Part shown: in pieces, positions 6,132-61,146 of the stretch
How positions within the stretch are numbered: the stretch's first letter is position 1
How the letters are laid out: every line of letters begins with the position of its first letter
Assembly: GCA_934098665.1 (NCBI GenBank)
Contig: CAKOOO010000003.1
Location: 28,125 to 92,124, forward strand
DNA from: an uncultured Bacilli bacterium
GTDB taxonomy: Bacteria > Bacillota_I > Bacilli_A > RF39 > UBA660
Reading direction: 5' to 3'
Length of the DNA: 64,000 nt
Program-made: the position numbers and the translations under genes
The notes under the pieces: model-generated
Databases searched by the model: none
What the model was told of the DNA's origin: nothing
What the model saw: only the letters and a program-made list of their open reading frames with translations

Positions 6132-6140
6132 ATTTTTCTA

Positions 6141-16499: not shown

Positions 16500-17039
16500 T
16501 TACTTTTTATCTAAATAATCATCATCAAGTTCATCTACATTTATGTTAAGTTCATCATTATTTTCCTCATCATAAACTTCTTCATAATCATCAAAATTAT
16601 CTTCAACTTGAATTTTTACGGTTGCATTACCTATTACCTCGATACCAAGTTCTTTTTCAATTTTTAGGGAAACTAAATCATCATTAATTTTGACATCAGT
16701 AACTGTAGGTTGTTTTAAAGCATTAACAATAATTTCACTATTACTATCAAGTTTACTGCTTTCCTTTATAGGAACATTTATAGCATCAGTATATGTAAAT
16801 TTTCTACTACATACAGCGGTTTTTGTATCATTATCATATGAATACCATACATTTACATCAAATGAGCCAGATACATTAACTTTACCTAAATTATTAACTC
16901 CCCTGAAAGAATGATTAATAACCCAGCATCCTAAAATAGTATTAGGTTTTTCATCACACTGAACTTCATAATTACTAACAATTTTCTTTTTACATTTACC
17001 GATTATTGCTTTTGTAACTATTTCTTTAAAGTTAGACAT
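16500..17039 (-). CDS. cotE: Spore coat morphogenetic protein CotE
   Basis: MSNFKEIVTKAIIGK...NTILGCWVINH...FDVNVWYSYDNDTKTAV closely parallels B. subtilis CotE as recalled (YREIITKAV...SILGGWIINH...YDINVWYSY..NTKTEV). Acidic C-terminal tail. Confidence 0.8.
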   Translation of the reverse strand: MSNFKEIVTKAIIGKCKKKIVSNYEVQCDEKPNTILGCWVINHSFRGVNNLGKVNVSGSFDVNVWYSYDNDTKTAVCSRKFTYTDAINVPIKESSKLDSNSEIIVNALKQPTVTDVKINDDLVSLKIEKELGIEVIGNATVKIQVEDNFDDYEEVYDEENNDELNINVDELDDDYLDKK

Positions 17040-17108
17040 CTTATCACCTTCCTACTTTAATTTATGCGTAGTATAGGCAAAAGTTGCTAAAAAAAATAGA
17101 GTTAACCT

Positions 17109-17810
17109 CTATTTTAAAAAGTAATTAATTAATACTGGACCAATTATCAAAATAAGCATAAGTGGTAAGAAAAGAAGTACTGAAACAATTGATATTTTCA
17201 TAGGCATTTTGTTAATGCTTGATTTGATATCTAAAATTCTTTTATCTGTTAAATAATTAATTTGATTAGCAAGTGCACCTTCAATACTATTACCAAATTC
17301 ATTAGCTTCTATTATATTAAGTATTACATTACAAACACTTTTTGATGGAATCTTTTTCATTAAATCCTGAAGACCCTCAGTTAAAGATTTTCCATAAGAA
17401 ACTTCCTTAAGCATTTTTTTAAATTCACTACTTATTGAACTATCTATGCTATTACATGTAATTGTTAAACAAAGTTTTAAATTTTTTTCACTTTGAATAG
17501 TAAGTGATAATACTTCGAAAAAGAATATTGAATCACTTTCAAGCTTATTTGCCCTTTTTTTAATTTTAATATCTACGAAAATATATTCATAACAAATATA
17601 AAATAATGTAGCTATTAATGGTGCTAAAAAATATCCAGAATTAAATATAAATAATACAAAAATAAATATTAATACTGTAAATATAATTCTAAAAGTTAAA
17701 AATGCATTAATATTATTTTTACTATCATAAGATAAATACATAAATTTATTTTCTAAATTTTTTATAGAATTTGTAGAATAAAAACTTTTATAAAAATCAT
17801 TTACTTTCAT
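17109..17810 (-). CDS. Type II secretion system F-family membrane protein (TadC-like)
   Basis: Polytopic, 233 aa, cytoplasmic helical domain between TM segments. Last gene of the Tad-like operon, ATGA overlap with the upstream gene. Confidence 0.65.
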   Translation of the reverse strand: MKVNDFYKSFYSTNSIKNLENKFMYLSYDSKNNINAFLTFRIIFTVLIFIFVLFIFNSGYFLAPLIATLFYICYEYIFVDIKIKKRANKLESDSIFFFEVLSLTIQSEKNLKLCLTITCNSIDSSISSEFKKMLKEVSYGKSLTEGLQDLMKKIPSKSVCNVILNIIEANEFGNSIEGALANQINYLTDKRILDIKSSINKMPMKISIVSVLLFLPLMLILIIGPVLINYFLK

Positions 17811-18817
17811 ATTTTTTCCACCTTTGTTATCTTTTTAATGATTATTACATATAAAATATAAATTATAACCATAAGTAAATCTAATATAATGCCTATCTTT
17901 GTGGTTAATAGTGGTGCAAAATAGTTTGGATTTAAGGAATATATTACTAAAATAAATATAAATGGGATAAAAATAAGTATTCTATAAAGCATTTTACTTG
18001 AACTTGTAAGTGAATTAAGTTCATTTTTAATTTTTAATTTATCATAAAAATGTTTTTCTATCATATTAAATACAGATATTATATTACCACCAGTCTTATT
18101 TAAAAGTGTAAGTGATGATGTAATATATTTAATTTCTTCAACTTTAACTCTATCATAAAATCTTTCAAATACATTAGTAAGTTCAAGTCCATAATTTAAA
18201 TCTTTTGATATAATTTCAAACTCATCTTTTATAGGACTTGATAAAGAAGTTTTAACTATATTTATTGCTTCCCATATATTTTTTCCACTTTTAAAAGCAC
18301 TATTCATAATAACAATTGCCTGTAAAAGACCACTTTCTATTGTATTACGCTTTTGTTTATAAATAATTATTAAAATAATATCTATCATAAAAAATGAAGC
18401 AAAAGCAATTATTATAAGTAAAAACATATTTATATTTATTTTCTTTAAACATGACATTAATATATATAAAAATGAAATAAAAAACATATAAAGTATTTTT
18501 AGGGAAATATAATCAATAGATTTTAAATTATTTTTTTTATTATATATCAAATATTTATCAAGTCTTTTTGAATAATTTACTAAAATAACACTTTTTGATA
18601 TAAATTTAGATATTTTTTTGATAAGTTTTAAAAATACTAATGCAAATTTATCAATAACGCTTTTTGAGGCTAAATTATTATTTTTTATATAATATTTTTG
18701 GACTCTATTTTTAAATTTAATTGCAAAGAAAAAACGCACAAATAAAACCGCTAATAAAATAAATATTACGCTTAAAATTAAAATAGTTAAAAGCTGAATT
18801 ATTTGTAATTTTTCCAT
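17807..18817 (-). CDS. Type II secretion system F-family membrane protein (TadB-like)
   Basis: Polytopic, 336 aa, same architecture as above, follows the CpaF-like ATPase. Confidence 0.65.
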   Translation of the reverse strand: MEKLQIIQLLTILILSVIFILLAVLFVRFFFAIKFKNRVQKYYIKNNNLASKSVIDKFALVFLKLIKKISKFISKSVILVNYSKRLDKYLIYNKKNNLKSIDYISLKILYMFFISFLYILMSCLKKININMFLLIIIAFASFFMIDIILIIIYKQKRNTIESGLLQAIVIMNSAFKSGKNIWEAINIVKTSLSSPIKDEFEIISKDLNYGLELTNVFERFYDRVKVEEIKYITSSLTLLNKTGGNIISVFNMIEKHFYDKLKIKNELNSLTSSSKMLYRILIFIPFIFILVIYSLNPNYFAPLLTTKIGIILDLLMVIIYILYVIIIKKITKVEKI

Positions 18818-18829
18818 TTTTTCTCCTTT

Positions 18830-20155
18830 CTATTTTTTAAAAATATTTGCTATTTCGCTAAAACCATAACTTTCAAGTCTTTTTAAACATTTAGGCATTT
18901 TTTTAGTTTGATTAAATAAACCATTTACTTCACCAGTACTTGTTATACCCTCTTGAGTAAAAGTAAATATATCATTTAAAATTATTTCATCATTTTTAAA
19001 ATCTACAACCTCGGAAATGCCACTTACTTTTCTTTTACCATCAGAAAGTCTTTCAATATTTATAACAATATTTATAGCATTATATATATATTCTCTTACT
19101 GCTTTTACAGGAATATCAATATTAGCCATTAAAACCATTGTTTCAAGTCTATGAAGAGCATCTAAATTGCCATTAGCATGAAGTGTTGTTAAACTTCCCT
19201 CATGACCAGTATTCATCGCTTGAAGCATATCAAATGCTTCCCCACCTCTTACTTCACCAATTATAATTCTATCAGGTCTCATACGAAGAGAATTTCTAAC
19301 TAAATCTCTAATAGTTATTTCACCGGTTTTTTCATAGTTTGTAGTTTTTGTTTCAAGGGTTATTACATGTGGTTGTGTAAGATTTAACTCTGCGGCATCC
19401 TCAATAGTAATAATTCTTTCTTTTTCAGGAATAAAACCACTTAAAATATTTAAAAGAGTTGTTTTACCTGAACCTGTACCGCCACATACTAAAATATTAA
19501 GTTTTGATTTAACACAAGCCTCTAGGAAAGTTGCCATATCTGATGTAAGTGAACCAATTCTAACAAGTTCTGATGCATTTGAAATATTTGCTTTAAATTT
19601 TCTAATTGTTATAACTGGCCCTTTTGTTGAAAGCGGTGGAATAACTGCATTTACCCTTGAACCATCTTTAAGTCTAGAATCTACCATTGGACTTGAGGAG
19701 TCAATAGTTCTTCCCATAGGTTCAATAAGTTTTTGAATAGTTCTTATAATATGAGCATCGTTTATAAATGAAACAGTTTCATCTTTAATTAAATTACCAT
19801 CAATTTCAATATAAATTTCATTTGGTGAATTTACCATTATTTCCGTAATATTTTCATCTTTTAATAAATCAGTTAAAGGACCATAACCATTAATTTCATT
19901 TTCAATTAAATTATATAGATAACTTCTTTGAAGTGTCGTTAAATCAATTCCTTCGGTTGCTTTATCAATTTCAACGTTAATAAAACTATCTATATTATCA
20001 TCATTTTTTAAGTTTAAATCAATAATATTTTCAACAATTTTAGTTCTTAAACTATCAAGTAAATCTTTATTTTCAAAAACATCATAATCATTAAATATAT
20101 TTTCATCATTAATCTTTTCAAAAGAAAAAACATCTTTTAAACTACTCATTTTCAT
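18830..20155 (-). CDS. CpaF/TadA-family secretion ATPase (VirB11-like)
   Basis: ILVCGGTGSGKTTLLN Walker A, RPDRIIIGEVRGGEA Walker B/Asp box, TGHEGSLTTLHAN His box. Confidence 0.9.
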   Translation of the reverse strand: MKMSSLKDVFSFEKINDENIFNDYDVFENKDLLDSLRTKIVENIIDLNLKNDDNIDSFINVEIDKATEGIDLTTLQRSYLYNLIENEINGYGPLTDLLKDENITEIMVNSPNEIYIEIDGNLIKDETVSFINDAHIIRTIQKLIEPMGRTIDSSSPMVDSRLKDGSRVNAVIPPLSTKGPVITIRKFKANISNASELVRIGSLTSDMATFLEACVKSKLNILVCGGTGSGKTTLLNILSGFIPEKERIITIEDAAELNLTQPHVITLETKTTNYEKTGEITIRDLVRNSLRMRPDRIIIGEVRGGEAFDMLQAMNTGHEGSLTTLHANGNLDALHRLETMVLMANIDIPVKAVREYIYNAINIVINIERLSDGKRKVSGISEVVDFKNDEIILNDIFTFTQEGITSTGEVNGLFNQTKKMPKCLKRLESYGFSEIANIFKK

Positions 20156-20903
20156 CCTCCATATACTTTAATAAAGAGTCAAATACTTTATAAGTTTTTG
20201 GATAATTTTTAGAAAACTTTTTATCAAGTGTAATAATTTTCCCATCAAAAATATAACTATCAATATTTTTTATAAAAAACTTACTATCTAAATGATAATC
20301 TATATTATATCCAAGCATCTTTTTTATATCATATAAACTAAAATAATTTTTATATGGATTAATACTTTCATTTAATAAAATTTTATAGTTTTTCTTATCA
20401 GCACTATCAAATATAGTAAGTAAATTATGCATATTTTTAATATTAACTAAATCATTATTCATAATAAATAAGTTTAAATCTACACTATCAAGTACTTCAA
20501 CATTATTTTCATTTAAAACGCTCATTGTATCTATAATTAAATAATCATAATAAAAAATAGACTTTTCAATTATTAAATCAATAAGTTTGCTATTTACCTT
20601 CGAAGCACTTCTTGGATCTTTTGCACTAGGTAAAAAATAAATGTTATCATTATATTTAGTTACATAATTATCTAAACTTATACTTTTATTATCAACATAA
20701 TCACTAACAAAATTTAAAAGTGTCTTTGTATAATCTTTATTTAAATAAAGTCCTATACTTCCAAAATATAAATCATAATCCACAATTAAAACTTTTTTTC
20801 CTTGCATAGCAAAAAATCCCGCGATATTTATTGCAGTTAAACTTTTTCCAGTCCCTCCTTTAGAGGAAAATAAACAAATACTTTTTCCCTTACCTTTAAT
20901 CAT
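20142..20903 (-). CDS. ParA/MinD-like ATPase (CpaE/TadZ-like, no receiver domain)
   Basis: Deviant Walker A SSKGGTGKS, VLIVDYD; sits immediately upstream of the CpaF-like ATPase. Confidence 0.75.
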   Translation of the reverse strand: MIKGKGKSICLFSSKGGTGKSLTAINIAGFFAMQGKKVLIVDYDLYFGSIGLYLNKDYTKTLLNFVSDYVDNKSISLDNYVTKYNDNIYFLPSAKDPRSASKVNSKLIDLIIEKSIFYYDYLIIDTMSVLNENNVEVLDSVDLNLFIMNNDLVNIKNMHNLLTIFDSADKKNYKILLNESINPYKNYFSLYDIKKMLGYNIDYHLDSKFFIKNIDSYIFDGKIITLDKKFSKNYPKTYKVFDSLLKYMEDENE

Positions 20904-20904
20904 A

Positions 20905-21270
20905 CTAATCCTTTTGATAAACTATCTTATCATCCTTTAAAACCCCTTTGATACTAACATCAATTATTCTTTCTTTTCTATTTAGAATTTTTTTCATTAA
21001 ACTATTAATATGAGCTTTAAATTTTAAACCAAAGCCATCATCATTTGAAATAGTTAAATCACTTATCTTGATATCATTATCATTAAACATCTTTATTATA
21101 CCATTTTTATCTTCACTTGCAAAGTTTTTTGCAATAACTGTTTTCGTAAATGAATATATTTTTCTTTTTTGGTATGCTATATAAATATTATCCATAACTA
21201 AACTTAATAAAATTACAAGTACTGGTAATATAATTATAAATAGTACTAACGCTTGGCCATTTTTATTCAT
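20905..21270 (-). CDS. TadE/TadG-like pseudopilin-type protein
   Basis: MNKNGQALVLFIIILPVLVILL: a short basic N-terminus, then GQA, then a hydrophobic helix (TadE-like N-terminal domain pattern). Confidence 0.6.
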   Translation of the reverse strand: MNKNGQALVLFIIILPVLVILLSLVMDNIYIAYQKRKIYSFTKTVIAKNFASEDKNGIIKMFNDNDIKISDLTISNDDGFGLKFKAHINSLMKKILNRKERIIDVSIKGVLKDDKIVYQKD

Positions 21271-29074: not shown

Positions 29075-30811
29075 TTAACTTCCCACTACATATGGATTAT
29101 TCCATGTACCATTGCCAGAAAGATTAGCATCTTTTGATATTGAGATAACTGGTCGAACGCCTAAAGCCGTTCTATCCGGGGTCGAATCAGAAATTTTTCC
29201 CGATGAAGTTGTATAAAAAGTGTACCCATAATCTTCGTAAAAACCATAAGGTGACATAGACCAATAGTCTTGATTTGTATATAAATAATAATTTGTATTA
29301 TCACTTTTGGGATTTCCACCTGCCATTAACAATTCATCGGCTGTTATTAAACCAACAGGATATGTTAATGCACCATTTCCAAACTCACTTTCATCATTTA
29401 AAATTATTTTATTTACCGTAAACATATCACTTTTTTCAGAACATATTAAACTAGGTGCAGTACCTTTACTCAAATAACCCAAATTCAATCTATTAGCTGG
29501 ATAATAGTAACCAAATTCTGCATAGTTGTATTTTTCCCATAAACCAGCATCCCTATCATTACAATAAATTGCATCTACCACTATTGATGAATCTGTACTT
29601 ACTAATGAAGTTGATGAATACCAACTATCCAAAGCCTGTTTAATTTTACTATTATTAACAGTATTTCCATCTATAGTACAGTTTTCATTTTGTGAGTCAC
29701 ATTTTCCATAACCATATTGTTGATCCGATATGTATTGATATCCAACACAAGCCGTTGTTTCGCAAGAATTATTATATACTGTAGTTGTTGCTTGCGTACC
29801 ATCTCCTGTCATAATAACTTTTTGATTTTCGATTGGTGCGGTTGTTCCTGTATATATCAGTCTTACACTACCATCGCCATTTATTCTAATTATTCGCCAA
29901 TACATATCATTATTTGAATTATCTTTACCAAATTTTACCCAGTTATTATCTACGGCACCTCGAAAATAATATGATGTTCCAAAATTATCTTCAGATAAAT
30001 AAAGTCCTTCATTTAATGTTGCGATATTATCAAAATTAGGCTTTTCTGCATTTAAATTATTATTTGATAGCAATTTTTTTCCTATAGTGCCTGGGATATC
30101 CAAGGCAATTATATCACAATTTTTATTTGATACATATATTTTACCAGTAAATCCTTTTTCAGAAAGTTGACCTTGAAATACATCTAAATTATAATATTTT
30201 CCTGTAATTGTCCATTTTTGTTCAGTTTCTTTTGTAGCACTATTATTATTGATTATTGCATTACTTACAAGGACTCTTTTTGCTCCAACTGAATTGGTAG
30301 TATCTTTTGCTGTCCATGAACTATCATAATTAAAGTTTTTTTCTTCATTATAGTTATTTGTTCCTGTACTTGGTCCTGATACTTGCATGGTTATTTCTTT
30401 AGTAACAGTTGTATTAGTTTCCTCATTCTTAGATACATAAGTAACATCATCACCATATATATACGAATTATAATCATACTCATATACTATATCATAAGTA
30501 CATGAAACTAATTGATTATCATCACCTGATATTAAGTTTACTGAAAGTGTAGCTGTATTTTCTGCAATAGCATTTACAGTACTATTATTAGAACGTTCCA
30601 TTGCTGCACCACTAACTTGTATATTTAGTTGGGTTGCATTTGATGTAAAAACAACATTTCCTCCAGATAATGCTGTCACATTTACTGCAACATTATTGGT
30701 AAGACCAGCACTCATATCACTAAAATATGCAAATGCTGCCGCTATAACAATAACAAAAAGCATCATTGCTGATACAAAACTTATTACTTTAACTTTCTTT
30801 TTATTTTCCAT
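29075..30811 (-). CDS. Secreted/surface protein, long-form paralogue A (578 aa)
   Basis: N-terminal anchor/signal MENKKKVKVISFVSAMMLFVIVIAAAFAYFSD. Shared motifs YYFRGAVDNNWV, YWRIIRINGDGSVRLIYTGTTAP, YPVGLITADE, YYLYT, YWSMSP, GVRPVISIS, GTWNNPY. Confidence 0.8.
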   Translation of the reverse strand: MENKKKVKVISFVSAMMLFVIVIAAAFAYFSDMSAGLTNNVAVNVTALSGGNVVFTSNATQLNIQVSGAAMERSNNSTVNAIAENTATLSVNLISGDDNQLVSCTYDIVYEYDYNSYIYGDDVTYVSKNEETNTTVTKEITMQVSGPSTGTNNYNEEKNFNYDSSWTAKDTTNSVGAKRVLVSNAIINNNSATKETEQKWTITGKYYNLDVFQGQLSEKGFTGKIYVSNKNCDIIALDIPGTIGKKLLSNNNLNAEKPNFDNIATLNEGLYLSEDNFGTSYYFRGAVDNNWVKFGKDNSNNDMYWRIIRINGDGSVRLIYTGTTAPIENQKVIMTGDGTQATTTVYNNSCETTACVGYQYISDQQYGYGKCDSQNENCTIDGNTVNNSKIKQALDSWYSSTSLVSTDSSIVVDAIYCNDRDAGLWEKYNYAEFGYYYPANRLNLGYLSKGTAPSLICSEKSDMFTVNKIILNDESEFGNGALTYPVGLITADELLMAGGNPKSDNTNYYLYTNQDYWSMSPYGFYEDYGYTFYTTSSGKISDSTPDRTALGVRPVISISKDANLSGNGTWNNPYVVGS

Positions 30812-30897
30812 AAATCTTCACCCTTTCACAAAATACGAATAATTAAAATTTTTTATAAATTTAAATCCTAATTTTTGCCCATAAATATGCACGTCTA

Positions 30898-31033
30898 TTT
30901 TCTTAAATTAGATACTTTTAAAAAAACTCTACCTTGATTTTACATACTTTACACTAAAATAATACACTATTTTTTATAATTTTTAAAGTCTTTTTAACGA
31001 TTTTACGTTTTCATTTTTTTTAAATGTATCTAC
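30898..31033. promoter_or_regulatory. Switch copy 1: promoter cassette between inverted sites, promoter facing gene A; sites partly eroded
   Basis: Left site: TTTTCTTAAA-TTAGATACT-TTTAAAAAAA (30898-30926). Right site: TTTTTTTAAA-TGTATCTAC (31015-31033). IR 30909-30926 / 31015-31032 matches 17 of 18. Minus-strand promoter: TTTAAA (30987..30982), 17-nt spacer, TATTAT (30964..30959). Confidence 0.6.
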
Positions 31034-31111: not shown

Positions 31112-31141
31112 AAATAAAAAAAAGAGCAAGATATACTTGCT
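31112..31141 (-). terminator. Terminator of paralogue B
   Basis: Stem AGCAAG (31125-31130) / CTTGCT (31136-31141), with the minus-strand U-run corresponding to the A-run at 31112-31123. Confidence 0.55.
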
Positions 31142-32910
31142 TAACTTAAATCCACTGTATACGGATTATTCCATGTGCCATCGCCAGATAATTTTGCCTC
31201 AGAGGATAGAGAAATTACACTACGGACGCCATCATTGACACTAGGAAACACACGATTACTAGACAGATAACCCGAATAATTTACAATGAAAACATTACTA
31301 TAATTAGCATAGAAATTGTAAGGCGACCCAGACCAATAACTTTGCCCTGTATATAAGTAATATGAACTGTTGCTAGTTTTATATCCTCCTGCCATATTTA
31401 TCTCATCAGCAGTTATTAAACCTACTGGATAAGAAAGTGTTCCGTTTGCTACACTATATTTATCTAATTCATTTTCGCATTTTAAACTTGGAGTCCAACT
31501 ATTATTATTTCCATATGTTCTTCCATTACTGCCATAATATGTTGCTCTGTTTGATATCCAACTACTTATTTCACCATATATACCTGTTTCACTTATTGAT
31601 GCTGTCCTATCATAACAAAATGGAGTATCTACTACTAATTTTGATGTTGCTGCATCCGCATATAGCGTTGTTATTTTATACCAATTTTCAAGTGTTGTCT
31701 TTATTATACTATCATTTGCTAGACCATGTTGTTTTCCTATCTCATATTTATATCCGACATATTCAGCTTTATTCATTTCATTATTAAATTTAATTGCATT
31801 TATTTGTGTACCTGTTCCAGTCATAACGCTCTTTTGACTTTCTGTTGGTGCTGTTGTTCCTGTATACAGGAGTCTTATTGACCCATCACCATTAATTCTT
31901 ACTATTCGCCAGTAAATTTTATCTCCATTTGATGCTATTTTAGTGCATGAATTTCCAGTATCAATTGTTGATATAGTGCCATAATTACAATCATATATAT
32001 CATTTGCATATTCACCATATTGTACCCAGTTATTATCTACTGCTCCTCTAAAATAGTAAGATAAGCCTTGGTCATCCATTGTCATATACATTCCTTCATT
32101 TGTTGTTGCACTATTTGTAAATACTGGAGTACCTTTTGATTTTATTACATCAATACCACCATTTTTTGCTAGTATTGTATTTCCAGCGGTACCAATATTG
32201 TTTGTTCCTATTGCACAATTTTTATTTGATACATATATTTTGCCTGTAAAGGCTTGATTAGAAAGCTGTGTTTGAAATATATTTAGGTTATAGTATTTAC
32301 CAGTAAATGTCCAATTTTGTGTTGTTTGCTCTGTTGAACTCATATTTGATATACCTGCATTACTTACAAGTACTTTTTTTGCTCCCACTAAATTTGTTGT
32401 ATCTTTTGCTGTCCATGAACTATCATAATTAAAGTTTTTTTCTTCATTATAGTTATTTGTGCCAATACTTGGTCCCGATACTTGCATTGTTATCTCTTTT
32501 GTTACGTTTGCACCCGTATCTCCATCTTTTGTTACATATGTTGTGCCATCGCCATATACATTTGAATTATAATCATATTCATATACTATATCATAAGTAC
32601 ATTTAACTAACTGATTATCGTCACCTGATATTAAATTAACTGATAAAGTTGCAGTATTTTCTGCAATAGCTGTTTCATTATTTGCAAATGATGAGTCCAT
32701 ACTACTTGAAGGCACGTTTATACTTAACTGGGTTGCATTGGATGAAAATACTGAGTCACCACCCTCTAAAGCGGTTACATTAACTGCTACATTATTTGCA
32801 AGACCTGCACTCATATTACTAAAATAAGCAAATGCTGCCGCTACCACAATTACAAATAGCATCATTGCTGATACAAAACTTATTACTTTAACTTTCTTTT
32901 TATTTTCCAT
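31141..32910 (-). CDS. Secreted/surface protein, long-form paralogue B (589 aa)
   Basis: The first ~230 aa are near-identical to paralogue A (MENKKKVKVISFVSAMMLFVIVVAAAFAYFSN...). The middle is diverged. The C-terminal motifs are shared: YYFRGAVDNNWV, YWRIVRINGDGSIRLLYTGTTAP, YPVGLITADE, GVRSVISLS, GTWNNPY. Confidence 0.8.
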   Translation of the reverse strand: MENKKKVKVISFVSAMMLFVIVVAAAFAYFSNMSAGLANNVAVNVTALEGGDSVFSSNATQLSINVPSSSMDSSFANNETAIAENTATLSVNLISGDDNQLVKCTYDIVYEYDYNSNVYGDGTTYVTKDGDTGANVTKEITMQVSGPSIGTNNYNEEKNFNYDSSWTAKDTTNLVGAKKVLVSNAGISNMSSTEQTTQNWTFTGKYYNLNIFQTQLSNQAFTGKIYVSNKNCAIGTNNIGTAGNTILAKNGGIDVIKSKGTPVFTNSATTNEGMYMTMDDQGLSYYFRGAVDNNWVQYGEYANDIYDCNYGTISTIDTGNSCTKIASNGDKIYWRIVRINGDGSIRLLYTGTTAPTESQKSVMTGTGTQINAIKFNNEMNKAEYVGYKYEIGKQHGLANDSIIKTTLENWYKITTLYADAATSKLVVDTPFCYDRTASISETGIYGEISSWISNRATYYGSNGRTYGNNNSWTPSLKCENELDKYSVANGTLSYPVGLITADEINMAGGYKTSNSSYYLYTGQSYWSGSPYNFYANYSNVFIVNYSGYLSSNRVFPSVNDGVRSVISLSSEAKLSGDGTWNNPYTVDLS

Positions 32911-32997
32911 AACAATTCACCCTTTCAAAAAATACGAACATTTAAAATTTTTTTAGAAAATTAAATTTTAAATTTTCCGCATAAGTACGCCATATAA

Positions 32998-33144
32998 TTT
33001 TCTTAAATTAGATACTTTTAAGAAAACTCTACCTTGATTTTACGTACTTTACACTAAAATAATACACCTTTTTTTATAATTTTTAAAGCATTTTTAACGA
33101 TTTTACGCTTTCGTATTTTCTTAAAAGTATCTACTAAAGGAAAA
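32998..33144. promoter_or_regulatory. Switch copy 2: promoter cassette between inverted recombinase-type sites, promoter facing gene B
   Basis: Left site: TTTTCTTAAA-TTAGATACT-TTTAAGAAAA (32998-33026). Right site: TTTTCTTAAA-AGTATCTAC-TAAAGGAAAA (33116-33144). Perfect 18-bp IR 33009-33026 / 33116-33133 around an 89-bp core. Minus-strand promoter: TTTAAA (33087..33082), 17-nt spacer, TATTAT (33064..33059). Confidence 0.75.
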
Positions 33145-33252
33145 TACGAACAAGGTAAACACTGGGAAAAATAGGAAATTTATGTACTTTTTTTATTTAT
33201 AAATTTTTTATTTTTTATGTAAAGTTTATGTAAAATAAAAAAGATTAATGAG

Positions 33253-36101: not shown

Positions 36102-38198
36102 TTACATCACCTTCCTAATTCCTTTATAATTTTTTAAAAACTTTTTAGTACCAAATCTATGATGAAATGCAATTGTAATAAATTTATCATCTATATCTAT
36201 TATAACACCTTTTCCAAAAGTTAAATGTGTAACTATATCACCTTTTTTAAACTCTGCAGTATTTTTACTATTTTCCTCATCATATAATAGTTTAGATTTA
36301 ATACTATGCATTTCTTTTCTTTCTTCTTCTTTATCAAGTAAATTATCACTTATTTCACTTATAAATCTACTTGGAAGATTCATTTGAATAGAGCCATAAA
36401 GCATTCTTCTTGTGGCATTTAAAAGATAAAGTTTTTCTTTTGCTCTTGTTATTGCAACATACATAAGTCTTCTTTCTTCCTCAAGGTCGCCTTCATCATA
36501 AAGTGCTTTTGATATTGGCATAATATTTTCCTCAAGGCCTATAATAAAAACAACTTTAAATTCAAGACCTTTTGCACAGTGTACTGTCATAAGAGTAACT
36601 GCATCACTATCTTCTGAGTACTCTGCAGCATCAGCTACAAGTGATACATCCATTAAAAAGTCAGATAAATTTACATTTCCCGTTTCTTTTTCATAAGTTT
36701 CAGAAACACTTCGAAATTCCATTAAGTTTTCAAGTCTAATATCACTTTCAAGTGATTTATCATTTTCATAAGTTTCTTTCATTTTAGAAAGTTCTAATGT
36801 TTTATCTATTAAACCAGTTATTGAAGTATCTTTACTAATTTCTATTAAATTTAATATTAAATTTTTAAATTCAAGTTCTTTTCCACTATCTATTGCATCG
36901 AATATTGAAATATTATTAACTCTTGCTTTTTCTTTTAAAGCATCAATTGTTTTATCACCAATTTTTCTTTTTGGTTCATTTATAATCCTTTCTAAAGAAA
37001 CATCATCACTTGGATTAGCTATAAGTTTTAAATATGCTAGTAAATCTTTAATTTCTTTTCTTTTATAAAAGTAAAATGAGCCATATACTTTATATGGTAT
37101 ATTTGCTTTAACAAGTGCTTCTTCGATTAAACGTGACTGAGCATTTGTTCTATAAAATACAGCAATATCCTTTCTATTATAACCTTCATTTACTAAATTT
37201 TTTATTTCTTCGACTACTCTTTTATTTTCCATTTCATCGTTATATGCTCTAATATATTTAATATTTACACCTTTTCCTAAATCTGAAAATAAATCTAAAT
37301 CTTTTCTTTGTTTATTATGAGATATTACTTCATTTGCGGCATCAAGTATGGTTTGCGTACTACGATAATTTTGGGGAAGTTTTATTACCGTGCATCCATT
37401 AAAATCTTTTTCAAAATTTAAAATATTTTGAAAATTTGCTCCCCTGAAAGCATAAATTGACTGTGATGGATCTCCAACTACAAAAAGATTTAAATATTTT
37501 TTAGATAAAAGTTTTACAAGTTTATACTGCACTTCATTAGTATCTTGATATTCATCAATTAAAATATATTTAAATCTTTCTTGATACTTTGAAAGTACAT
37601 CTTTATTACTATTAAAAATTTCTACAGGTTTTTTTAGTAAATCATCAAAATCAAGAGTGTTATTTCTTTTTAAAATTTTCTCATATTCATAATATACTTT
37701 AACGGCAATTTTTTCATTTTCGGCAATTAAAAAATTAGCTATTTCACTATCAGAAAGCATATTATTTTTTATAAAGGAAATCTTACTTTTTATAAATGCT
37801 GGACTTACCATTTTATCTGTGATATTTATATCTTTCATTATTTTTTTTATAATACTTGTTTGATCTTCAGTATCTATTAAAGTAAATGTGCTTGTTAAGC
37901 CAAAAAAAGAAGTATTTTCTCTTATAATTTTAAGACCAAATGAATGAAATGTACCTATAAAAGCTCCACTTGCATTTATTAATTTATTAACTCTTTCACG
38001 CATTTCTCCTGCAGCTTTATTAGTAAATGTTATTGCTAAAATATTATATGGATCTATTCCACTATCAATTAAACTAGCAATTCTTGTCGTAAGTACTTTT
38101 GTTTTTCCTGAACCTGCTCCAGCGATGACTAAACATGGGCCATCCTTAAATGTAGCTGCCTTTCTTTGCATTTCATTAAGTTTTTCTAAATAGTCCAT
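36102..38198 (-). CDS. pcrA: ATP-dependent DNA helicase PcrA (UvrD family)
   Basis: AGAGSGKTKVLT Walker A, IDEYQDTN, QNYRST, VTLMTVHCAKGLEF, YVAITRAKE motifs. Confidence 0.95.
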   Translation of the reverse strand: MDYLEKLNEMQRKAATFKDGPCLVIAGAGSGKTKVLTTRIASLIDSGIDPYNILAITFTNKAAGEMRERVNKLINASGAFIGTFHSFGLKIIRENTSFFGLTSTFTLIDTEDQTSIIKKIMKDINITDKMVSPAFIKSKISFIKNNMLSDSEIANFLIAENEKIAVKVYYEYEKILKRNNTLDFDDLLKKPVEIFNSNKDVLSKYQERFKYILIDEYQDTNEVQYKLVKLLSKKYLNLFVVGDPSQSIYAFRGANFQNILNFEKDFNGCTVIKLPQNYRSTQTILDAANEVISHNKQRKDLDLFSDLGKGVNIKYIRAYNDEMENKRVVEEIKNLVNEGYNRKDIAVFYRTNAQSRLIEEALVKANIPYKVYGSFYFYKRKEIKDLLAYLKLIANPSDDVSLERIINEPKRKIGDKTIDALKEKARVNNISIFDAIDSGKELEFKNLILNLIEISKDTSITGLIDKTLELSKMKETYENDKSLESDIRLENLMEFRSVSETYEKETGNVNLSDFLMDVSLVADAAEYSEDSDAVTLMTVHCAKGLEFKVVFIIGLEENIMPISKALYDEGDLEEERRLMYVAITRAKEKLYLLNATRRMLYGSIQMNLPSRFISEISDNLLDKEEERKEMHSIKSKLLYDEENSKNTAEFKKGDIVTHLTFGKGVIIDIDDKFITIAFHHRFGTKKFLKNYKGIRKVM

Positions 38199-39769: not shown

Positions 39770-41149
39770 CTATAATTTTATTTTTTCATTTATGAAGCTT
39801 TCAATTTCCTTAACATTTAAAGTAATTTGCTCCATTGTATCACGATATCTTAAAGTAACTGTATTATTATTTATTGTTTCATCATCAATTGTTATAGCAA
39901 AAGGTGTTCCAATTGCATCAGCTCTTCTGTAGCGTTTACCAATATTTCCAGTTTCATCATAAGAACAGTTAAATGATTTTGTTAAATTTCTATATATTTC
40001 CCTTGCCTTTTCACTATGAAATTTCTTTACAAGAGGAAGTACACTAACTTTATATGGTGCTAAATATGGATGAATTTTAAGTACTTCACGAGTAGTACCA
40101 TCAGAAAGAGTTTCTTCATTATAAGCATCACATAAAATAGTTAAAAATAATCTTTCTACTCCAAGTGAAGGCTCTATAACATAAGGAATATATTTTTCAT
40201 TAGTATCAGGATCTAAATATTTTAAATTTTCACATGAATATTTTTCATGTTGTTTTAAATCATAATCAGTCCTTGAAGCAATTCCCCATAGTTCTCCATA
40301 GCCAAATGGAAAGTTATATTCAATATCTGTTGTTGCGTTTGAATAAAAACATAGTTCTTCCTTAGAGTGATCTCTTAAACGAATATTATTCGAATTTATA
40401 CCAATGTCCTTTAAGAAGTTTACACATTTTTCTTTATAAAATTTAAACCATTCAAGTTCTGTTCCAGGTTTACAGAAAAATTCAAGTTCCATTTGTTCAA
40501 ATTCTCTTACCCTAAATATAAAATTTCCTGGAGTAATTTCATTTCTAAAACTTTTACCAACTTGTCCTATTCCAAAAGGTACTTTAAGACGCATACTTCT
40601 TTGAACATTTAAAAAGTTTACAAATATTCCTTGGGCTGTTTCTGGTCTTAAATAAATTGTACTTTTTGCTTCTTCAGTTACACCTTGAAAAGTTTTAAAC
40701 ATTAAATTAAATTGTCTTATATCAGTAAAATCACTTTTTCCACATTTAGGACATGAAATATTATTAGTTTTAATAAATTCTACTAACTTTTCATTACTCC
40801 ATCCATCACCAGTTTCTTTACCATGAGTAAAGTCTTCAATTAATTTATCTGCTCTATATCTTGTTTTACAATGTTTACAGTCTACTAAAGGGTCAGCAAA
40901 TGTTTTTAAATGCCCACTTGCTTCCCATACTTTAGGGTTCATTAAAATACTACTATCAAGTGACACATTATTTTCATCTTCCTCAACAAATTTTTTAAGC
41001 CATGCATTTTTTATGTTTCTTTTAAGTTCTGCACCAAGTGGCCCAAAATCCCAAGAATTAGCAAGGCCTCCATATATCTCGCTACCTTGAAATATAAATC
41101 CATAATTCTTACAATAATTAGTAAGTTTTTCCATTGTTAATTTTTCCAT
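39770..41149 (-). CDS. glyQS: Glycyl-tRNA synthetase (homodimeric GlyQS type)
   Basis: 459 aa. [39 protein letters not shown] and [10 protein letters not shown] motifs. AGGAGG RBS before the ATG at 41149. Confidence 0.93.
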
Positions 41150-41164: not shown

Positions 41165-41290
41165 AAAATTCCTTTAAAAAATAATTTAGGGACGAATATT
41201 TATCCGCGGTTCCACCCTAATTATTCCTAAAGGAATCACTTTTATTATTTTAGCTCTTGGTTTCCAACCCCGTCATCGCTATAACAATTA
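41165..41290 (-). promoter_or_regulatory. T-box leader (tRNA-sensing antitermination riboswitch) upstream of glyQS-proS
   Basis: The minus strand contains AATTAGGGTGGAACCGCGG (plus 41204-41222), the T-box consensus. The terminator helix ATTCCTTTAGGAATAATTAGGG / CCCTAAATTATTTTTTAAAGGAAT is followed by a U-run. An upstream AGCGATGA GA-motif is present. Confidence 0.7.
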
Positions 41291-41444
41291 TAATATTTTT
41301 TTTTATAAAATACAATAAAATTGTTGCATTTTATAAATTTATTTAGTATAATAACACTCGTTAGTCAAAAAAGACTATCAAATTAGGAAAGTATTTTATT
41401 TAAAAAGGTCACTATTTGTGGCCTTTTTAATTGTATTTATATAT

Positions 41445-42533
41445 TTACATCCCTATTCTATAAGGATCTACTTGCGTACCTGTTCCACTTACTACATATA
41501 CATTTGGTTTTAGATAAAGGACTGGTCTAGTTGCATAACTCACATTTGCAACATTACTAGATAAGCATCCATTAGAAATCCATAATTGGATGGTATCACT
41601 ATAAGCACCAATTAACCACTCATTTTCACACATGAAAAGCCAATTTTTTTGTGTGTACTGTTCAATGGTACCCCCATAACCAATTATGCCTGAATATCCT
41701 TCAACTGCATATCCAAAGTCGCTTGCGTACATTAAGCCTATTTTAGATAATGAAGATGAATATCTACTTATTTCCAAATCATATTGGTCATCAGCTGTAT
41801 GAAATGCTTTATCACCAAAGCCAATATAATAATAAACATTTTCAACCATTTTGCCATAATTACTATCTTCATCAATACCAATTAAAGAGTAATTACACAT
41901 ACCTATTGCGTCAGTTCCTGCATAACAATAATCATCACATGATGATGTTTTTCCTAAATAACATTTATTTAATAAATTTTGAATATTAGTATTTAACCAA
42001 GTAAATTGATTTGTAGTACTAAACATATTTTTATCATATAGGAAACTACCAATAATATCATTTCTTATTAGTTTTACTCTATTTTCAGTTGATGCACATC
42101 CACTTGTTAAACATACTGGTACGTTTCCGATTATTCTCCATAGTTCATCATTAAACCATACATAATTATCTGGATTTTTCCCTTGATATCTTATTCCATG
42201 TGTTGTACTTGCACCTTTACTATCAACTACATCACTTAAATTACTAGCATTTGAATTAAATGAAATATCACATGTTACTGTTCCTTTTATTTTTGTTATT
42301 TCTAGTTTCCATGTTTTAGGGTTCCATACTCCTTTTCCATTTTCACAATTAACAGTTACATTATATTTACCACTTGCTGGAAAAGATGTTGCACTATTTC
42401 CATCAACAGTTAATGCAATAATACTTCCATTGTAATTAAATGTTTTAATGCTTTTACTACTTATAACTATAAGTAAAGTAACACTTATTATTATAAATAT
42501 ACTACATACTATTATTTTTTTATTATATTTCAT
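41445..42533 (-). CDS. Secreted/surface protein, short-form paralogue D (362 aa)
   Basis: N-terminal TM/signal. STTHGIRYQGKNPDNYVWFNDELWRIIGNVPVCLTSGCASTENRVKLIRNDI is near-identical to paralogue C. C-terminal ATRPVLYLKPNVYVVSGTGTQVDPY. Starts 27 nt after the stop of C (operon). Confidence 0.75.
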   Translation of the reverse strand: MKYNKKIIVCSIFIIISVTLLIVISSKSIKTFNYNGSIIALTVDGNSATSFPASGKYNVTVNCENGKGVWNPKTWKLEITKIKGTVTCDISFNSNASNLSDVVDSKGASTTHGIRYQGKNPDNYVWFNDELWRIIGNVPVCLTSGCASTENRVKLIRNDIIGSFLYDKNMFSTTNQFTWLNTNIQNLLNKCYLGKTSSCDDYCYAGTDAIGMCNYSLIGIDEDSNYGKMVENVYYYIGFGDKAFHTADDQYDLEISRYSSSLSKIGLMYASDFGYAVEGYSGIIGYGGTIEQYTQKNWLFMCENEWLIGAYSDTIQLWISNGCLSSNVANVSYATRPVLYLKPNVYVVSGTGTQVDPYRIGM

Positions 42534-42560
42534 TTAATTTCCTTCTTTCTATTAATTTAA

Positions 42561-43874
42561 TTAAAGATTTAAAATGTAAGGATTAGTTTGAGAACCATCA
42601 CCACTTGTAACGTAAACTTGCGACTTTAGAAAAATTGTTGGTCTTACAAAATAACCATCGAAAGATTTATTTCCATATATCCAGCCATAACTTATAAAAA
42701 ATGGCCAAGAGGAAGAAATAGTCATAGTCCACTCCATACCCGTTTTATATAGCCAATTTTGATTACAGTATCCTTGCGGATTATTAATACGACCTAGTCC
42801 ACTACTAAATCCTTTAAACGCATAGCCAAAATCACTTACATACATTATGCCAACTTTTCTCGCTACAGTATCTATACTAGATTTTTCATAATTATAATGT
42901 TCGTCAGCAGTATGTGCTGAATCATCACCAACCATAGCATTTGGATTACTTTCTATTCCAGCATAGTAAAAAACATCTTCTATCATGTTTCCGTAAAAAT
43001 CTGAAGCATCTATACCAATAAGAGAATAATCACAATTACCCACAATGCTTGTACCTTTTATATAACAATAATTATCACAACTACTTTTTTTACCTAAATA
43101 ACAACCATTTAATAATTTTTGAATATTACTATCACTCCATGTTGTACTAGAATCACTAAATTTATAGGCACCTAAAATATCATTTCTTATTAGTTTTACT
43201 CTATTTTCAGTTGATGAACATCCACTTGTTAAACATACTGGTATGTTTCCAATTATTCTCCATAGCTCATCATTATACCAAACATAGTTATTTGGGTCTG
43301 TTCCTTGATATCTTATTCCATGTGTTGTACTTGTTCCATTATTATTTACTATAGTTGTAAGAAGCTCACTACTTGATGGTGTTTTTTGGGTAAATTCTAT
43401 ATCACATTTTACAAAATCATTCCAATTTGATACTTCTATACCATTTAATTTATTATTCCAAATAGTACTATTTGTTCCTTTACAATTTGTAACACTTTTT
43501 GTATAACCTGATAATAAATATGAAGGAGTTTCTATATTCATTTTTATGTCAGAAATTACTTCATAATACATATAAACTGTACATCTATCAGAGCCTAATG
43601 TTTGATATGATAATTTATTTCCTACTATATCAACTGTTCCACCATTTTCACAAAATGTTTTATCTGTATCTATATGATAATTTGTTAAATCACTTGGAAT
43701 AGAATTTGCATTTGTATAATCAGCTTCTCCATCACCTTTTATCATAATAGCATAAGATTTTTTGATAATTAATTTATCATTATTAAGTGTATTTTTCTTA
43801 TCATTATAGATAATTATGGTAATTAAAAATGCTACTAACAAAAATACGAACAACATTATTTTTTTTCTTTTCAT
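42561..43874 (-). CDS. Secreted/surface protein, short-form paralogue C (437 aa)
   Basis: N-terminal TM/signal MKRKKIMLFVFLLVAFLITIIIY. STTHGIRYQGTDPNNYVWYNDELWRIIGNIPVCLTSGCSSTENRVKLIRNDI. C-terminal FVRPTIFLKSQVYVTSGDGSQTNPY. Confidence 0.75.
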   Translation of the reverse strand: MKRKKIMLFVFLLVAFLITIIIYNDKKNTLNNDKLIIKKSYAIMIKGDGEADYTNANSIPSDLTNYHIDTDKTFCENGGTVDIVGNKLSYQTLGSDRCTVYMYYEVISDIKMNIETPSYLLSGYTKSVTNCKGTNSTIWNNKLNGIEVSNWNDFVKCDIEFTQKTPSSSELLTTIVNNNGTSTTHGIRYQGTDPNNYVWYNDELWRIIGNIPVCLTSGCSSTENRVKLIRNDILGAYKFSDSSTTWSDSNIQKLLNGCYLGKKSSCDNYCYIKGTSIVGNCDYSLIGIDASDFYGNMIEDVFYYAGIESNPNAMVGDDSAHTADEHYNYEKSSIDTVARKVGIMYVSDFGYAFKGFSSGLGRINNPQGYCNQNWLYKTGMEWTMTISSSWPFFISYGWIYGNKSFDGYFVRPTIFLKSQVYVTSGDGSQTNPYILNL

Positions 43875-43909: not shown

Positions 43910-44056
43910 TTTTCTTATATTAGGTAGATTTAAGAAAATTACATAACGTAAAATCGTTATTTTGACTTTAAAAATTATAAAAAATAATGTATAATTTAAT
44001 AGTAAGGTACGTAAATACGAGGTAGAATTTTCTTAAATCTACCTACTTTAGGAAAA
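43910..44056. promoter_or_regulatory. Switch copy 3: same cassette as copies 1-2 but with the core reverse-complemented (promoter facing away from the C-D operon)
   Basis: Left site: TTTTCTTATA-TTAGGTAGA-TTTAAGAAAA (43910-43938). Right site: TTTTCTTAAA-TCTACCTAC-TTTAGGAAAA (44028-44056). Perfect 20-bp IR 43921-43940 / 44026-44045 around an 85-bp core. The promoter is on the plus strand: TTTAAA (43967-43972), 17-nt spacer, TATAAT (43990-43995). Confidence 0.8.
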
Positions 44057-44076
44057 TACGAACAAGGTAAATACTA

Positions 44077-56661: not shown

Positions 56662-57786
56662 CTAATTTGCTATATCTTCGAGCGTTACAATAAATATATC
56701 TATATTCATTGTACTATCATTTATAGTTTTTTGCAAAACTTTTTCATAAATTATTTCATCTTTTTCTTTTATACTTAAATTTATTTTTTCTTTAGCATTT
56801 TCTAAGGCTTTTTTAATAATTTCATCTTCAGAATAAGTCTTTTTGATTTTTTTAATTTCAGTATCTTTTCTTAAATAAAATTTTATCCCAAGTCCACTAA
56901 ATAAAAGTTTATTTTCTGATGTAAAGTTTTTTATTCTATTGTTTAAAATTACATAGTCTTTATCATCTATATTAAAAACAAAATTATATCTTTTCTTTTT
57001 AGTTTTTTTTGCTTCATACATTTCAAATGGCATATTAATATTTACTGTATAATAAACTTGTGCATAAACACTACCTTTTGCGCAAACACTTCCAACTACA
57101 TTTTCATTTAAATAAATATCTTTACTAATTAATAAATCACCTTTTTTTACATAAGTATTCATTTTAGCATAAGACGTTCCCTTTTCAACTCTAATAGTTT
57201 TAACAAGACCATCCTTTTTAGCATATACATCACAAGAAGTATTTTCTTTTACCGGAGTTTTAATTACCTTTTCTTCAACACTTACAATATATCTCATTCC
57301 TTTTACTTCAATTTCTAACCAGTCAATTATATCATTATTTTCATTTTTTATTTTTTCTTTAATCGTTTCTATTTGCGAAAAACTTTTTTTTAATGTATAT
57401 TTTTTTATACCTAAATCAGATAAAGATACAAGTAAAATATTTTTTAATTTTTCGTTTTCACTTTGAATGTTTATATCAACAATAAAGTTACTAAAAAAGA
57501 AGACTAAAAAAAGTGATAAACTTAAACTTATAAATAATAAATAATATTTTTTAAATAACTTAAAATAATGTTTTTGTCCATAATATCTTACAACCTCAAA
57601 ATTCAAATATTTATAATATTTATTAATTTTTTCAAGGTCATCCTCTAAAATTTTTATATATAATTTATTATTTGAAATAAAACAGTCATAAATAGAAATA
57701 TTTTGATTATTAAGTTTTATAATAATGCTATTTAAGTTTAAATTATTTGTTTTAATTAAAATATAATTTTTAATTTTTTTGAACAT
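56662..57786 (-). CDS. yqfD: Sporulation protein YqfD
   Basis: 374 aa, single central TM segment, located after yqfC and before the ybeY-dgkA-era cluster as in Bacillus. Confidence 0.7.
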   Translation of the reverse strand: MFKKIKNYILIKTNNLNLNSIIIKLNNQNISIYDCFISNNKLYIKILEDDLEKINKYYKYLNFEVVRYYGQKHYFKLFKKYYLLFISLSLSLFLVFFFSNFIVDINIQSENEKLKNILLVSLSDLGIKKYTLKKSFSQIETIKEKIKNENNDIIDWLEIEVKGMRYIVSVEEKVIKTPVKENTSCDVYAKKDGLVKTIRVEKGTSYAKMNTYVKKGDLLISKDIYLNENVVGSVCAKGSVYAQVYYTVNINMPFEMYEAKKTKKKRYNFVFNIDDKDYVILNNRIKNFTSENKLLFSGLGIKFYLRKDTEIKKIKKTYSEDEIIKKALENAKEKINLSIKEKDEIIYEKVLQKTINDSTMNIDIFIVTLEDIAN

Positions 57787-60609: not shown

Positions 60610-60709
60610 TTAGAAAAGGCTCATAAGGGCGGTCATAGGTTCCTTGAGCCACCATTGCCAATAAAAAAAGTAGCCCTCACAATGTGAAAACTACTATTAC
60701 TTTTTTTAT

Positions 60710-60734
60710 TGGTGCAGGTAAAGGGACTTGAACC
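60710..60734 (-). tRNA. Displaced tRNA 3'-end fragment (T-loop to CCA), putative prophage attachment-site half
   Basis: The minus strand reads GGTTCAAGTCCCTTTACCTGCACCA: the T-loop box GGTTCAAGTCC, the 3' T-stem, a 7-nt acceptor strand, a discriminator A and CCA. No matching 5' half (GCAGGTA...) within the next 80 nt. Confidence 0.45.
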
Positions 60735-60763
60735 TACTAATAAAATAATCAGGAAAGGAAATT

Positions 60764-60949
60764 TTGAGTTATTTTATTTTGTATGATTTTGAAGATAATA
60801 TTGTATGCTATATTGATAGTTTAAACGAATTTAAATTAAAATTTAATTATCCTGTTTATGAATTAAATAGGAAATTTAAAAATAGTAAATCAAATTTTAT
60901 TTTATTTAATATTGAAAATAAGAAATATAAACTTTACAAGTTTAGTTAG
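60764..60949 (+). CDS. Prophage hypothetical protein (61 aa), TTG start
   Basis: ORF track entry. First ORF inside the element. No recognisable motif. Confidence 0.35.
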   Translation: MSYFILYDFEDNIVCYIDSLNEFKLKFNYPVYELNRKFKNSKSNFILFNIENKKYKLYKFS

Positions 60950-60963
60950 GGAGGAAAATTATT

Positions 60964-61146
60964 ATGTCAAAATATTTTTTATTTTTTATTGGTGGTTTTG
61001 CGTATAGTTATTTTTTAGATTTTTCTATAGAATTAACTAGAAAAAAATGGCGTAAAGAAGCTAATTATAAATGTAATAATTGTAAAGTCTGGGACTGTCC
61101 AGTTCATTATTGTAGAAAGAAAGGAGAAAAAAATGAAAAAAATTAA
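60964..61146 (+). CDS. Prophage small membrane protein with Cys-rich tail
   Basis: GGGAGG RBS. One TM segment (YFLFFIGGFAYSYFL), then CNNCKVWDCPVHYC. Confidence 0.4.
   Translation: MSKYFLFFIGGFAYSYFLDFSIELTRKKWRKEANYKCNNCKVWDCPVHYCRKKGEKNEKN

Follow-up and report, generated by a model that had tools for sequence, protein, structure and literature searches.

Upstream of a gene for a 589-aa protein in an uncultured gut bacterium lie two short, near-palindromic sequences that mirror one another across 89 bp of AT-rich DNA. This raises the question of whether the intervening segment is turned over by a site-specific recombinase and, if so, what kind of enzyme is responsible and what the turn does to the adjacent gene. 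Such elements are found at three places in the window (the whole 64-kb stretch of DNA analysed here), each about 150 bp in size and each upstream of a minus-strand gene. Their parts, with the recombination sites given without strand, are as follows.

29075-30811, minus strand: copy 1 gene, encoding a 578-aa paralogue of the 589-aa protein (P0031)
30898-30926: copy 1 gene-proximal site, TTTTCTTAAATTAGATACTTTTAAAAAAA, 1 mismatch
30927-31014, minus strand: copy 1 interior, with its promoter (-35 at 30987, -10 ending at 30959) facing the gene at 29075-30811
31015-31032: copy 1 distal half-site, inner arm TTTTTTTAAAT plus core GTATCTA, outer arm absent
31141-32910, minus strand: copy 2 gene, encoding the 589-aa protein
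32977-32991, minus strand: conserved proximal flank motif of copy 2, GGCGTACTTATGCGG, within the 5' leader
32998-33026: copy 2 gene-proximal site, outer arm TTTTCTTAAAT (32998-33008), core TAGATAC (33009-33015), inner arm TTTTAAGAAAA (33016-33026)
33027-33115, minus strand: copy 2 invertible interior, promoter-bearing, 89 bp, facing the gene at 31141-32910
33059-33087, minus strand: copy 2 promoter from the promoter scan, -35 TTTAAA (33087-33082), 17-nt spacer, TG, -10 TATTAT (33064-33059)
33116-33144: copy 2 gene-distal site, inner arm TTTTCTTAAAA, core GTATCTA (reverse complement of TAGATAC), outer arm CTAAAGGAAAA
33140-33162, minus strand: conserved distal flank block of copy 2, GTGTTTACCTTGTTCGTATTTTC, overlapping the distal outer arm
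41445-43874, minus strand: two-gene unit downstream of copy 3, with the gene for a 437-aa protein (42561-43874) followed after 27 nt by that for a 362-aa paralogue
43910-43938: copy 3 gene-proximal site, TTTTCTTATAT-TAGGTAG-ATTTAAGAAAA
43939-44027, plus strand: copy 3 interior, inverted relative to copies 1 and 2, with its promoter (TTTAAA-17-TATAAT, 43967-43995, plus strand) pointing away from the gene at 42561-43874
44028-44056: copy 3 gene-distal site, TTTTCTTAAAT-CTACCTA-CTTTAGGAAAA

The first-pass annotation had read each copy 2 site as a pair of arms flanking an asymmetric spacer, and its description agrees exactly with the sequence: the left site (32998-33026) consists of TTTTCTTAAA, TTAGATACT and TTTAAGAAAA, with fully complementary arms, and the right site (33116-33144) of TTTTCTTAAA, AGTATCTAC and TAAAGGAAAA, with arms complementary at only 7 of 10 positions, and the two spacers hold TAGATACT (left) and AGTATCTA (right) in opposite orientation. 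It was equally correct in stating that copy 3 has this layout with another spacer core, TAGGTAGA/TCTACCTA, in the two sites (43910-43938 and 44028-44056) of a switch that extends over 43910-44056. In a repeat search, the two copy 2 sites emerged as the arms of a 30-nt inverted repeat that are 87% complementary and stand 89 nt apart; the perfect part of the repeat is 18 nt long (TAGATACTTTTAAGAAAA). Both copy 2 and copy 3 are short segments between inverted repeats, as is characteristic of invertons.

Since the host genome is AT-rich, the annotation had itself asked whether the arm motif might simply be frequent throughout. In the 64-kb window, a search for the 29-nt site pattern with up to 3 mismatches gave 7 matches where 0.35 were expected, a number reached by none of 100 shuffled sequences. 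Five of the seven lie inside the three switches (at about 30.9, 33.0-33.1 and 43.9-44.1 kb), as do all four matches with no more than 1 mismatch; the copy 2 proximal site matched with none. The 10-mer arm by itself was not significantly enriched (8 matches vs 3.3 expected, with 2 of 100 shuffles reaching 8). Because six of these eight 10-mer matches fall inside switches, however, the arm motif cannot be regarded as a word that recurs all over this AT-rich DNA. Searching with an nhmmer profile built from the interiors identified exactly three copies in the window, with E-values between 5e-16 and 6e-13, copy 3 being on the opposite strand.

The three copies differ in two respects. A three-region alignment showed the flanks of copy 3 to be co-linear with those of copies 1 and 2 and its interior to be mismatched; when copy 3 was reverse-complemented, the interior reached 88% mean column identity with the other two, implying that one copy is already flipped within the window. 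In addition, alignment to copy 2 revealed that copy 1 (30898-31032) has undergone a precise deletion of 11 nt that corresponds to the distal outer arm (ATTTTCCTTTA on the gene strand).

To see the same locus in other genomes, we used exact-protein look-ups, which retrieved it from three other human-gut metagenome assemblies: ERZ4559618, a Hadza sample (L001), ERZ28614471 (L002 and L004) and ERZ27287474 (L003). At copy 2, about 130 nt on each side together with both sites are 100% identical to the window in L001, L002 and L003, the proximal site being unaltered, and the interior is the exact reverse complement of the window's over 89 of 89 nt. The 89-bp segment between the copy 2 sites inverts. 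A related locus in 'Mycoplasma sp. CAG:472'-like genomes was likewise found in two states between identical flanks, OFF in L023 and L049 and ON in L059. Thus, the inversion that had been predicted from the opposed spacers is seen directly, with both orientations present in nature at two loci. The orientation of copy 1 was the same in the window, L001, L002 and L003, and copy 3 had the window's orientation in the two further contigs that cover it (L005 and L006). Each assembly gives the majority orientation only, so that switching within a population is seen indirectly at most. As the inverted repeats (18-30 nt) are presumably shorter than the k-mers used by the assemblers, misassembly is unlikely and the differences in orientation can be considered real. 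We also noted that the Hadza contig L006, which carries the copy 3 gene, breaks (positions 1-30) exactly at the copy 3 distal site; a contig end of this kind would be expected if mixed orientations in the sample had broken the assembly graph, which is only suggestive.

We extended this analysis by searching for relatives of the switch with a pattern that combined both inner arms with a portion of the proximal outer arm. In species-representative genomes, this pattern identified four true relatives, two of them on one 'Mycoplasma sp. CAG:472' scaffold, one in MGYG-HGUT-04242 and one in a Hadza 'Bacilli' MAG, and among 32 metagenome stretches about 24 were true relatives. All of these share the arms, a homologous interior of 89-99 nt, the distal flank block and the proximal flank motif. 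The resulting set of 15 distinct site pairs was used to refine the boundaries of the site, which had been proposed as 10-bp arms around a 9-bp spacer. The layout stands and these boundaries do not: position 1 of the 9-nt spacer varies independently between partner sites and position 9 helps to complete the symmetry of the arms, so that the site is best described as 11-7-11. Its consensus is TTTTCTTAAAT, then TA(G/T)(A/G)(T/C)A(C/G) (TAKRYAS), then ATTTAAGAAAA; the 11-nt arms, TTTTCTTAAAT / ATTTAAGAAAA, are inverted, with proximal sites near-perfect and the distal outer arm weaker. Seven different cores occur across loci, and the 7-nt core is identical at both partners in 12 of the 15 site pairs, the other three having 1-2 core mismatches. 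Partner cores could be kept identical by the inversion process or by gene conversion instead of by selection for homology.

Taken together, our preferred reading, to which we assign a probability of roughly three in four, is that the three elements are invertible promoters (invertons) that are flipped by a recombinase encoded elsewhere, most likely of the tyrosine family. Each element would consist of an 89-bp segment with a sigma-70-type promoter, bracketed by two 29-bp sites in inverted orientation, and each site of two 11-bp inverted binding arms (consensus TTTTCTTAAAT) around the 7-bp asymmetric core TAKRYAS. A site-specific recombinase supplied from elsewhere in the genome, most likely a tyrosine enzyme, would bind the four arms and exchange strands inside the 7-bp core, thereby flipping the segment. 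In the ON state, the promoter would read through the gene-proximal site and a short leader into the gene for a membrane-anchored, probably surface-exposed protein; in the OFF state, it would point away from that gene.

The choice of enzyme family turns on the geometry of the sites. Tyrosine core sites have arms of about 9-13 bp and an asymmetric overlap of 6-8 bp that is identical in the partners, a description that fits the 11-nt arms and, in the 12 site pairs with identical cores, the 7-nt core. A core that covaries between partners and is asymmetric, together with its odd length and the inverted arms, favours a tyrosine core site over the 2-bp crossover of serine enzymes. Of the original proposal of a tyrosine-recombinase core site, the arm-spacer-arm geometry is upheld; the enzyme class, which is read from geometry only, is held more loosely. 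The chemistry would then be of the tyrosine type with crossover within the 7-bp core, although the sequence itself would place the crossover only somewhere within the 18-nt perfect repeat. Spacer polymorphisms at two loci (L040 and L050) were considered as a means of mapping it more finely; these alleles are better explained as homologous recombinants and added no resolution.

It is conceivable, if unlikely, that the same invertible promoter is instead served in trans by a serine invertase (Hin/Gin/Mpi-like) with crossover at the central dinucleotide. There is precedent for such an arrangement in Mpi of B. fragilis, a serine recombinase that serves many promoter invertons in trans (PMC2268961, PMC11602134), and the sites described here are roughly palindromic, like hix sites. 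The 29-bp site argues against this: since the length of its spacer is odd, the dyad axis runs through a base and not between two bases, and partner sites covary over 5 variable positions of the 7-nt core, i.e. more than 2 bp. Nor did a Hin query reveal a serine recombinase, either in the window or in any of the 68 loci fetched. The elements also depart from Hin/Gin-type systems in that the interior lacks an ORF, the window and related loci contain no resolvase-like ORF and the core has an odd number of bases; an Mpi-like serine enzyme acting in trans would be compatible with these departures, if improbable.

We therefore return to a trans-acting, probably tyrosine-type recombinase, and to where it might be encoded. 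As the annotation had stated, none of the window's ORFs is a recombinase: all ORFs of at least 100 aa were without a match to the Pfam families Phage_integrase or Resolvase, and neither a XerD-family HMM nor the Hin phmmer query found a match in the window. Because the window encodes no recombinase, the invertase acts in trans, from elsewhere in the genome. When the search was extended by 10 kb on each side, the left extension contained housekeeping genes only and the right extension contained a 319-aa tyrosine integrase at window-equivalent positions 65301-66260, 1.3 kb past the right edge. This gene lies in a small integrated element (60700-64000, continuing in L064 4122-6700) that starts at about 60.7 kb, has tRNA genes at its end and contains short plus-strand ORFs, 344-aa and 206-aa proteins (with a faint Zot match), a Rep_OBD protein and the 319-aa integrase. 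The element recurs in L063 in other genomic surroundings and resembles an integrative element of the inovirus-like or rolling-circle type; the 319-aa protein is most likely its own integrase. As a candidate invertase it was tentatively set aside on account of this membership of a Rep_OBD/Zot-like element by tRNAs that recurs in other contexts.

Among about 25 related loci (within 68 fetched loci), a recombinase gene stands beside a switch in only one, L024. Here a 290-aa XerD-like protein (320.8 bits against TIGR02225, cutoff 329.6) is encoded 116 nt from the distal side of a family switch, which lends some weight to the notion that the chromosome's conserved XerD-like recombinase inverts the switches without a dedicated invertase. 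Xer-like recombinases also drive inversions of surface-antigen loci in mycoplasmas (PMC2268961). We nevertheless assign this explanation a low probability. In L024, at 5600-6800, the family switch and an 808-aa gene lie between the XerD-like gene and a Zip transporter gene, which adjoin each other in related genomes (L025-L030); the switch and its gene have merely been inserted between xerD and Zip. Orthologues of the recombinase (P0134 and P0141, 82-84% identity) occupy a conserved xerD-Zip-GATase neighbourhood without a switch, and the gene is near no other switch locus. The adjacency is thus probably accidental, and the L024 gene was rejected as a switch-linked recombinase. The likeness of the arms to a dif half-site is a by-eye judgement only, and with six sites in 64 kb, a 7-nt core and a position upstream of genes, the switches do not conform to Xer/dif sites, which are 11-6-11 and occur once per chromosome at the terminus.

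If one trans-acting enzyme serves all loci, the question arises of whether recombination between loci is avoided. The first-pass annotation had proposed that locus-specific spacers prevent it, an idea that is not supported by comparison across loci. Copies 1 and 2, which are 2.1 kb apart, have the identical core TAGATAC, and among six contigs with two loci the cores were the same at both in three and different in three; the TATGTAG core is common to the two loci of the CAG:472 scaffold. In L050 (1740-2100), one invertible family promoter lies between divergent family genes (540 aa, minus strand; 819 aa, plus strand) and has site cores that differ by one base, TATGTAG vs TATATAG. A flip there would turn one gene ON and the other OFF, and the mixed-core arrangement looks like the product of inter-locus exchange. 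Because cores are shared between copies 1 and 2 and between the CAG:472 loci and are mixed in L050, a strict spacer-address rule is unsupported: spacer diversity is real, yet there is no strict partition between loci.

The flanks of the switches are also conserved. The conserved flank block (CAGTATTTACCTTGTTCG) is present on the distal side of every family member (CAGTATTTACCTTGTTCGTATTTTC; 25 nt), including those whose more upstream sequence shows no relationship. Two flank motifs, GTAYTTAY and TTGTTCGTATTT, occur in direct orientation on both sides of every switch; the second one is located either in the 5' UTR or within the opening codons of the gene. By its sequence, the distal flank resembles the proximal flank together with the start of the gene, with the RBS and ATG deleted. 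In the window, TTGTTCGTATTTT is confined to switch contexts (30830-30842, 32929-32941, 33141-33153, 43841-43853 and 44053-44065); one copy overlaps each distal outer arm, and another in the same orientation falls, for copies 1 and 2, in the 5' UTR and, for copy 3, in the codons L-F-V-F of the signal peptide. One tentative and rather improbable extension is that the switches form a modular promoter cassette that spans the lineage and has been distributed to many paralogous genes for surface proteins, under the control of one unlinked, possibly XerD-like, recombinase, with the direct-repeat flank motifs (GTATTTAC..TTGTTCGTATTT) as accessory or arm-type binding sites that confine recombination to one cassette despite shared cores. 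A decayed locus was noted in L007 (11800-11880), where an intact distal site and 9 nt of interior are fused to the middle of a family gene; everything else in the switch is missing, as are some 370 codons, and the deletion has one of its ends at the switch.

With regard to the effect on the adjacent gene, each interior contains a sigma-70-like promoter with the -35 elements TTTAAA/TTGAAA/TAGATA and the -10 elements TATTAT/TATAAT/TTTAAT, separated by a 17-nt spacer ending in or just before TG, and with a conserved TTAATAGTAAGGTACG after the -10. The positions of the -35/-10 pair, the 17-nt spacing and the TG are kept in 26 distinct interiors. In a species that has the proximal site only (L008-L017), the promoter was directed toward the gene in 10 of 10 assemblies, as it was in all five assemblies of the arm-deleted copy 1 type (the window, L001-L003 and the diverged strain L007). 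Since these fixed variants all face the gene, and since a locked-OFF gene would decay, the reading of the gene-facing orientation as ON is supported. The interior promoter would drive the adjacent gene in one orientation only, with transcription from the copy 2 promoter predicted to start near 33052 on the minus strand. Copies 1 and 2 would then be ON and copy 3 OFF in the window; in the three other samples copy 1 would be ON, and both copy 2 and, wherever it was seen, copy 3 would be OFF. Copy 1 is probably locked ON naturally, following the loss of its distal outer arm.

Inversion might alternatively gate transcription that is initiated upstream, through a terminator or leader structure of the cwpV type, rather than re-orient a promoter. 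A promoter-like, AT-rich sequence (TTTACA-16-TATAAA) can be read in the copy 2 distal flank, and the ON leader of copy 2, in which the GGCGTACTTATGCGG motif is predicted to pair with the interior AAGUACG, is predicted to be more stable than shuffled sequences (z = -2.7); by eye, this flank-motif pairing is not kept in CAG:472-type leaders. We consider gating very unlikely, as there is no terminator-like hairpin in either orientation of the switch, the -35/-10 pair holds a conserved position in the interior, species without the distal flank and distal site retain an interior promoter facing the gene, and a terminator of the upstream gene precedes the switch in many relatives. A Rfam scan of 28-46 kb gave no match in the switch regions. 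Elsewhere in the window, a T-box leader match (41185-41327, minus strand; 50.6 bits, below the gathering score of 93; E = 1e-8) stands upstream of a glycyl-tRNA synthetase gene (39770-41149), and a match to RF03531 ('C. difficile sRNA included into helicase gene'; 36412-36509, minus strand; 67.8 bits, above the gathering score) lies inside a UvrD/PcrA-like helicase gene (36102-38198).

Finally, the notion that the palindromes are static operators or terminators, and the differences in orientation assembly artefacts or RecA-mediated accidents, may draw on the capacity of each site to form a hairpin and on the many chance repeats of AT-rich genomes, but is effectively refuted by the exact site-bounded inversion in three independent samples and assemblers with flanks 100% identical and by a second locus in both states, and is further opposed by an architecture that is kept across species while the core varies, by a site pattern far above chance and by a perfect repeat that, at 18 nt, is too short for efficient homologous recombination.

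We also sought to determine what the invertible promoters regulate. An AlphaFold model of the 589-aa protein (pLDDT 78) has an N-terminal membrane helix and beta-rich domains, and no PDB fold matched it below E = 1e-3. The regulated proteins belong to no Pfam or NCBIfam family; their own family has more than 4000 matches, almost all from gut metagenomes, and its longer relatives have a DUF6273 match at the C-terminal end. The 437-aa and 362-aa proteins downstream of copy 3 have the family's C-terminal domain. A lipobox cysteine is absent from the N-terminus of the products, and a SipW-dependent signal peptide, of which the N-terminal A-Y-F-S-D motif is reminiscent, was dismissed for want of such an NCBIfam match. 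From the model, the products are probably membrane-anchored and surface-exposed; given a model with no significant fold match and proteins with no Pfam or NCBIfam family, we use 'surface protein' as an interpretation. The host is an uncultured low-GC gut Firmicute, with CotE and YqfD sporulation genes and a Tad-like pilus locus (T2SSE, two T2SSF and a ParA-like protein) encoded within 16500-21270 and 56662-57786 of the window. These genes imply that the public 'Mycoplasma' label is nominal.

A system of invertible promoters with an unlinked recombinase has several counterparts. In Mycoplasma penetrans, as relayed in PMC2268961, the mpl (P35) family comprises paralogous lipoprotein genes with individual invertible promoters (Horino et al. 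2003). In both systems, paralogous surface-protein genes at several places each have their own short, independent invertible promoter, the recombinase lies outside the invertible segment and Xer-like tyrosine recombinases are candidates. Unlike those of mpl, the products described here are not lipoproteins and belong to an uncharacterised family with a DUF6273-like C-terminus, and the host is a gut member of the Bacilli that bears sporulation genes and is no true mycoplasma, so that the likeness is one of logic and not of site sequence. Mpi of B. fragilis is a global, unlinked recombinase that acts on many promoter invertons with conserved inverted repeats and shapes surface architecture (PMC2268961, PMC11602134). 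The polysaccharide invertons that it controls resemble the present switches in this unlinked control of many promoters in a gut commensal, and differ from them in phylum, in the genes regulated and in enzyme, as Mpi is a serine recombinase with hix-like repeats, whereas the odd core of the 11-7-11 site points to a tyrosine enzyme.

The switches of C. difficile that depend on RecV (cwpV, flgB and others) are likewise short invertible elements upstream of surface-structure genes in a low-GC Firmicute, several of which are thought to be served by one trans-acting tyrosine recombinase. The sequences of RecV sites vary from site to site, and cwpV acts via a terminator and not a promoter; here, by contrast, the arms are near-identical in all copies and the promoter is inside. 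The comparison with the logic of RecV and Mpi as global recombinases acting in trans, which the first-pass annotation had drawn, holds good. The fimS switch of E. coli (FimB/FimE) is a further parallel, in which a short promoter segment is turned by a tyrosine recombinase (the class suggested here by site geometry) to set a surface structure ON or OFF. It is a single locus of 314 bp with 9-bp repeats and adjacent recombinase genes; the present switches have an 89-bp interior, occur at several loci and have no recombinase gene beside them.

Invertons are abundant in gut Firmicutes (PMC11602134), and a literature search on the lineage and on 'CAG-472' found no paper. The switch family is real and well-defined, and represents a kind of phase variation that is already familiar; it leaves our knowledge of how invertons work unchanged. 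What it provides is a clean example of multi-locus phase variation in uncultured, reduced-genome gut Bacilli ('Mycoplasma sp. CAG:472'-like), with the useful features of a compact 11-7-11 site with a covarying core, an arm-deletion variant that is apparently locked ON and a promoter that would toggle two divergent genes. The system is thus a convenient substrate for finding the recombinase and for reading ON and OFF states from metagenomic reads.
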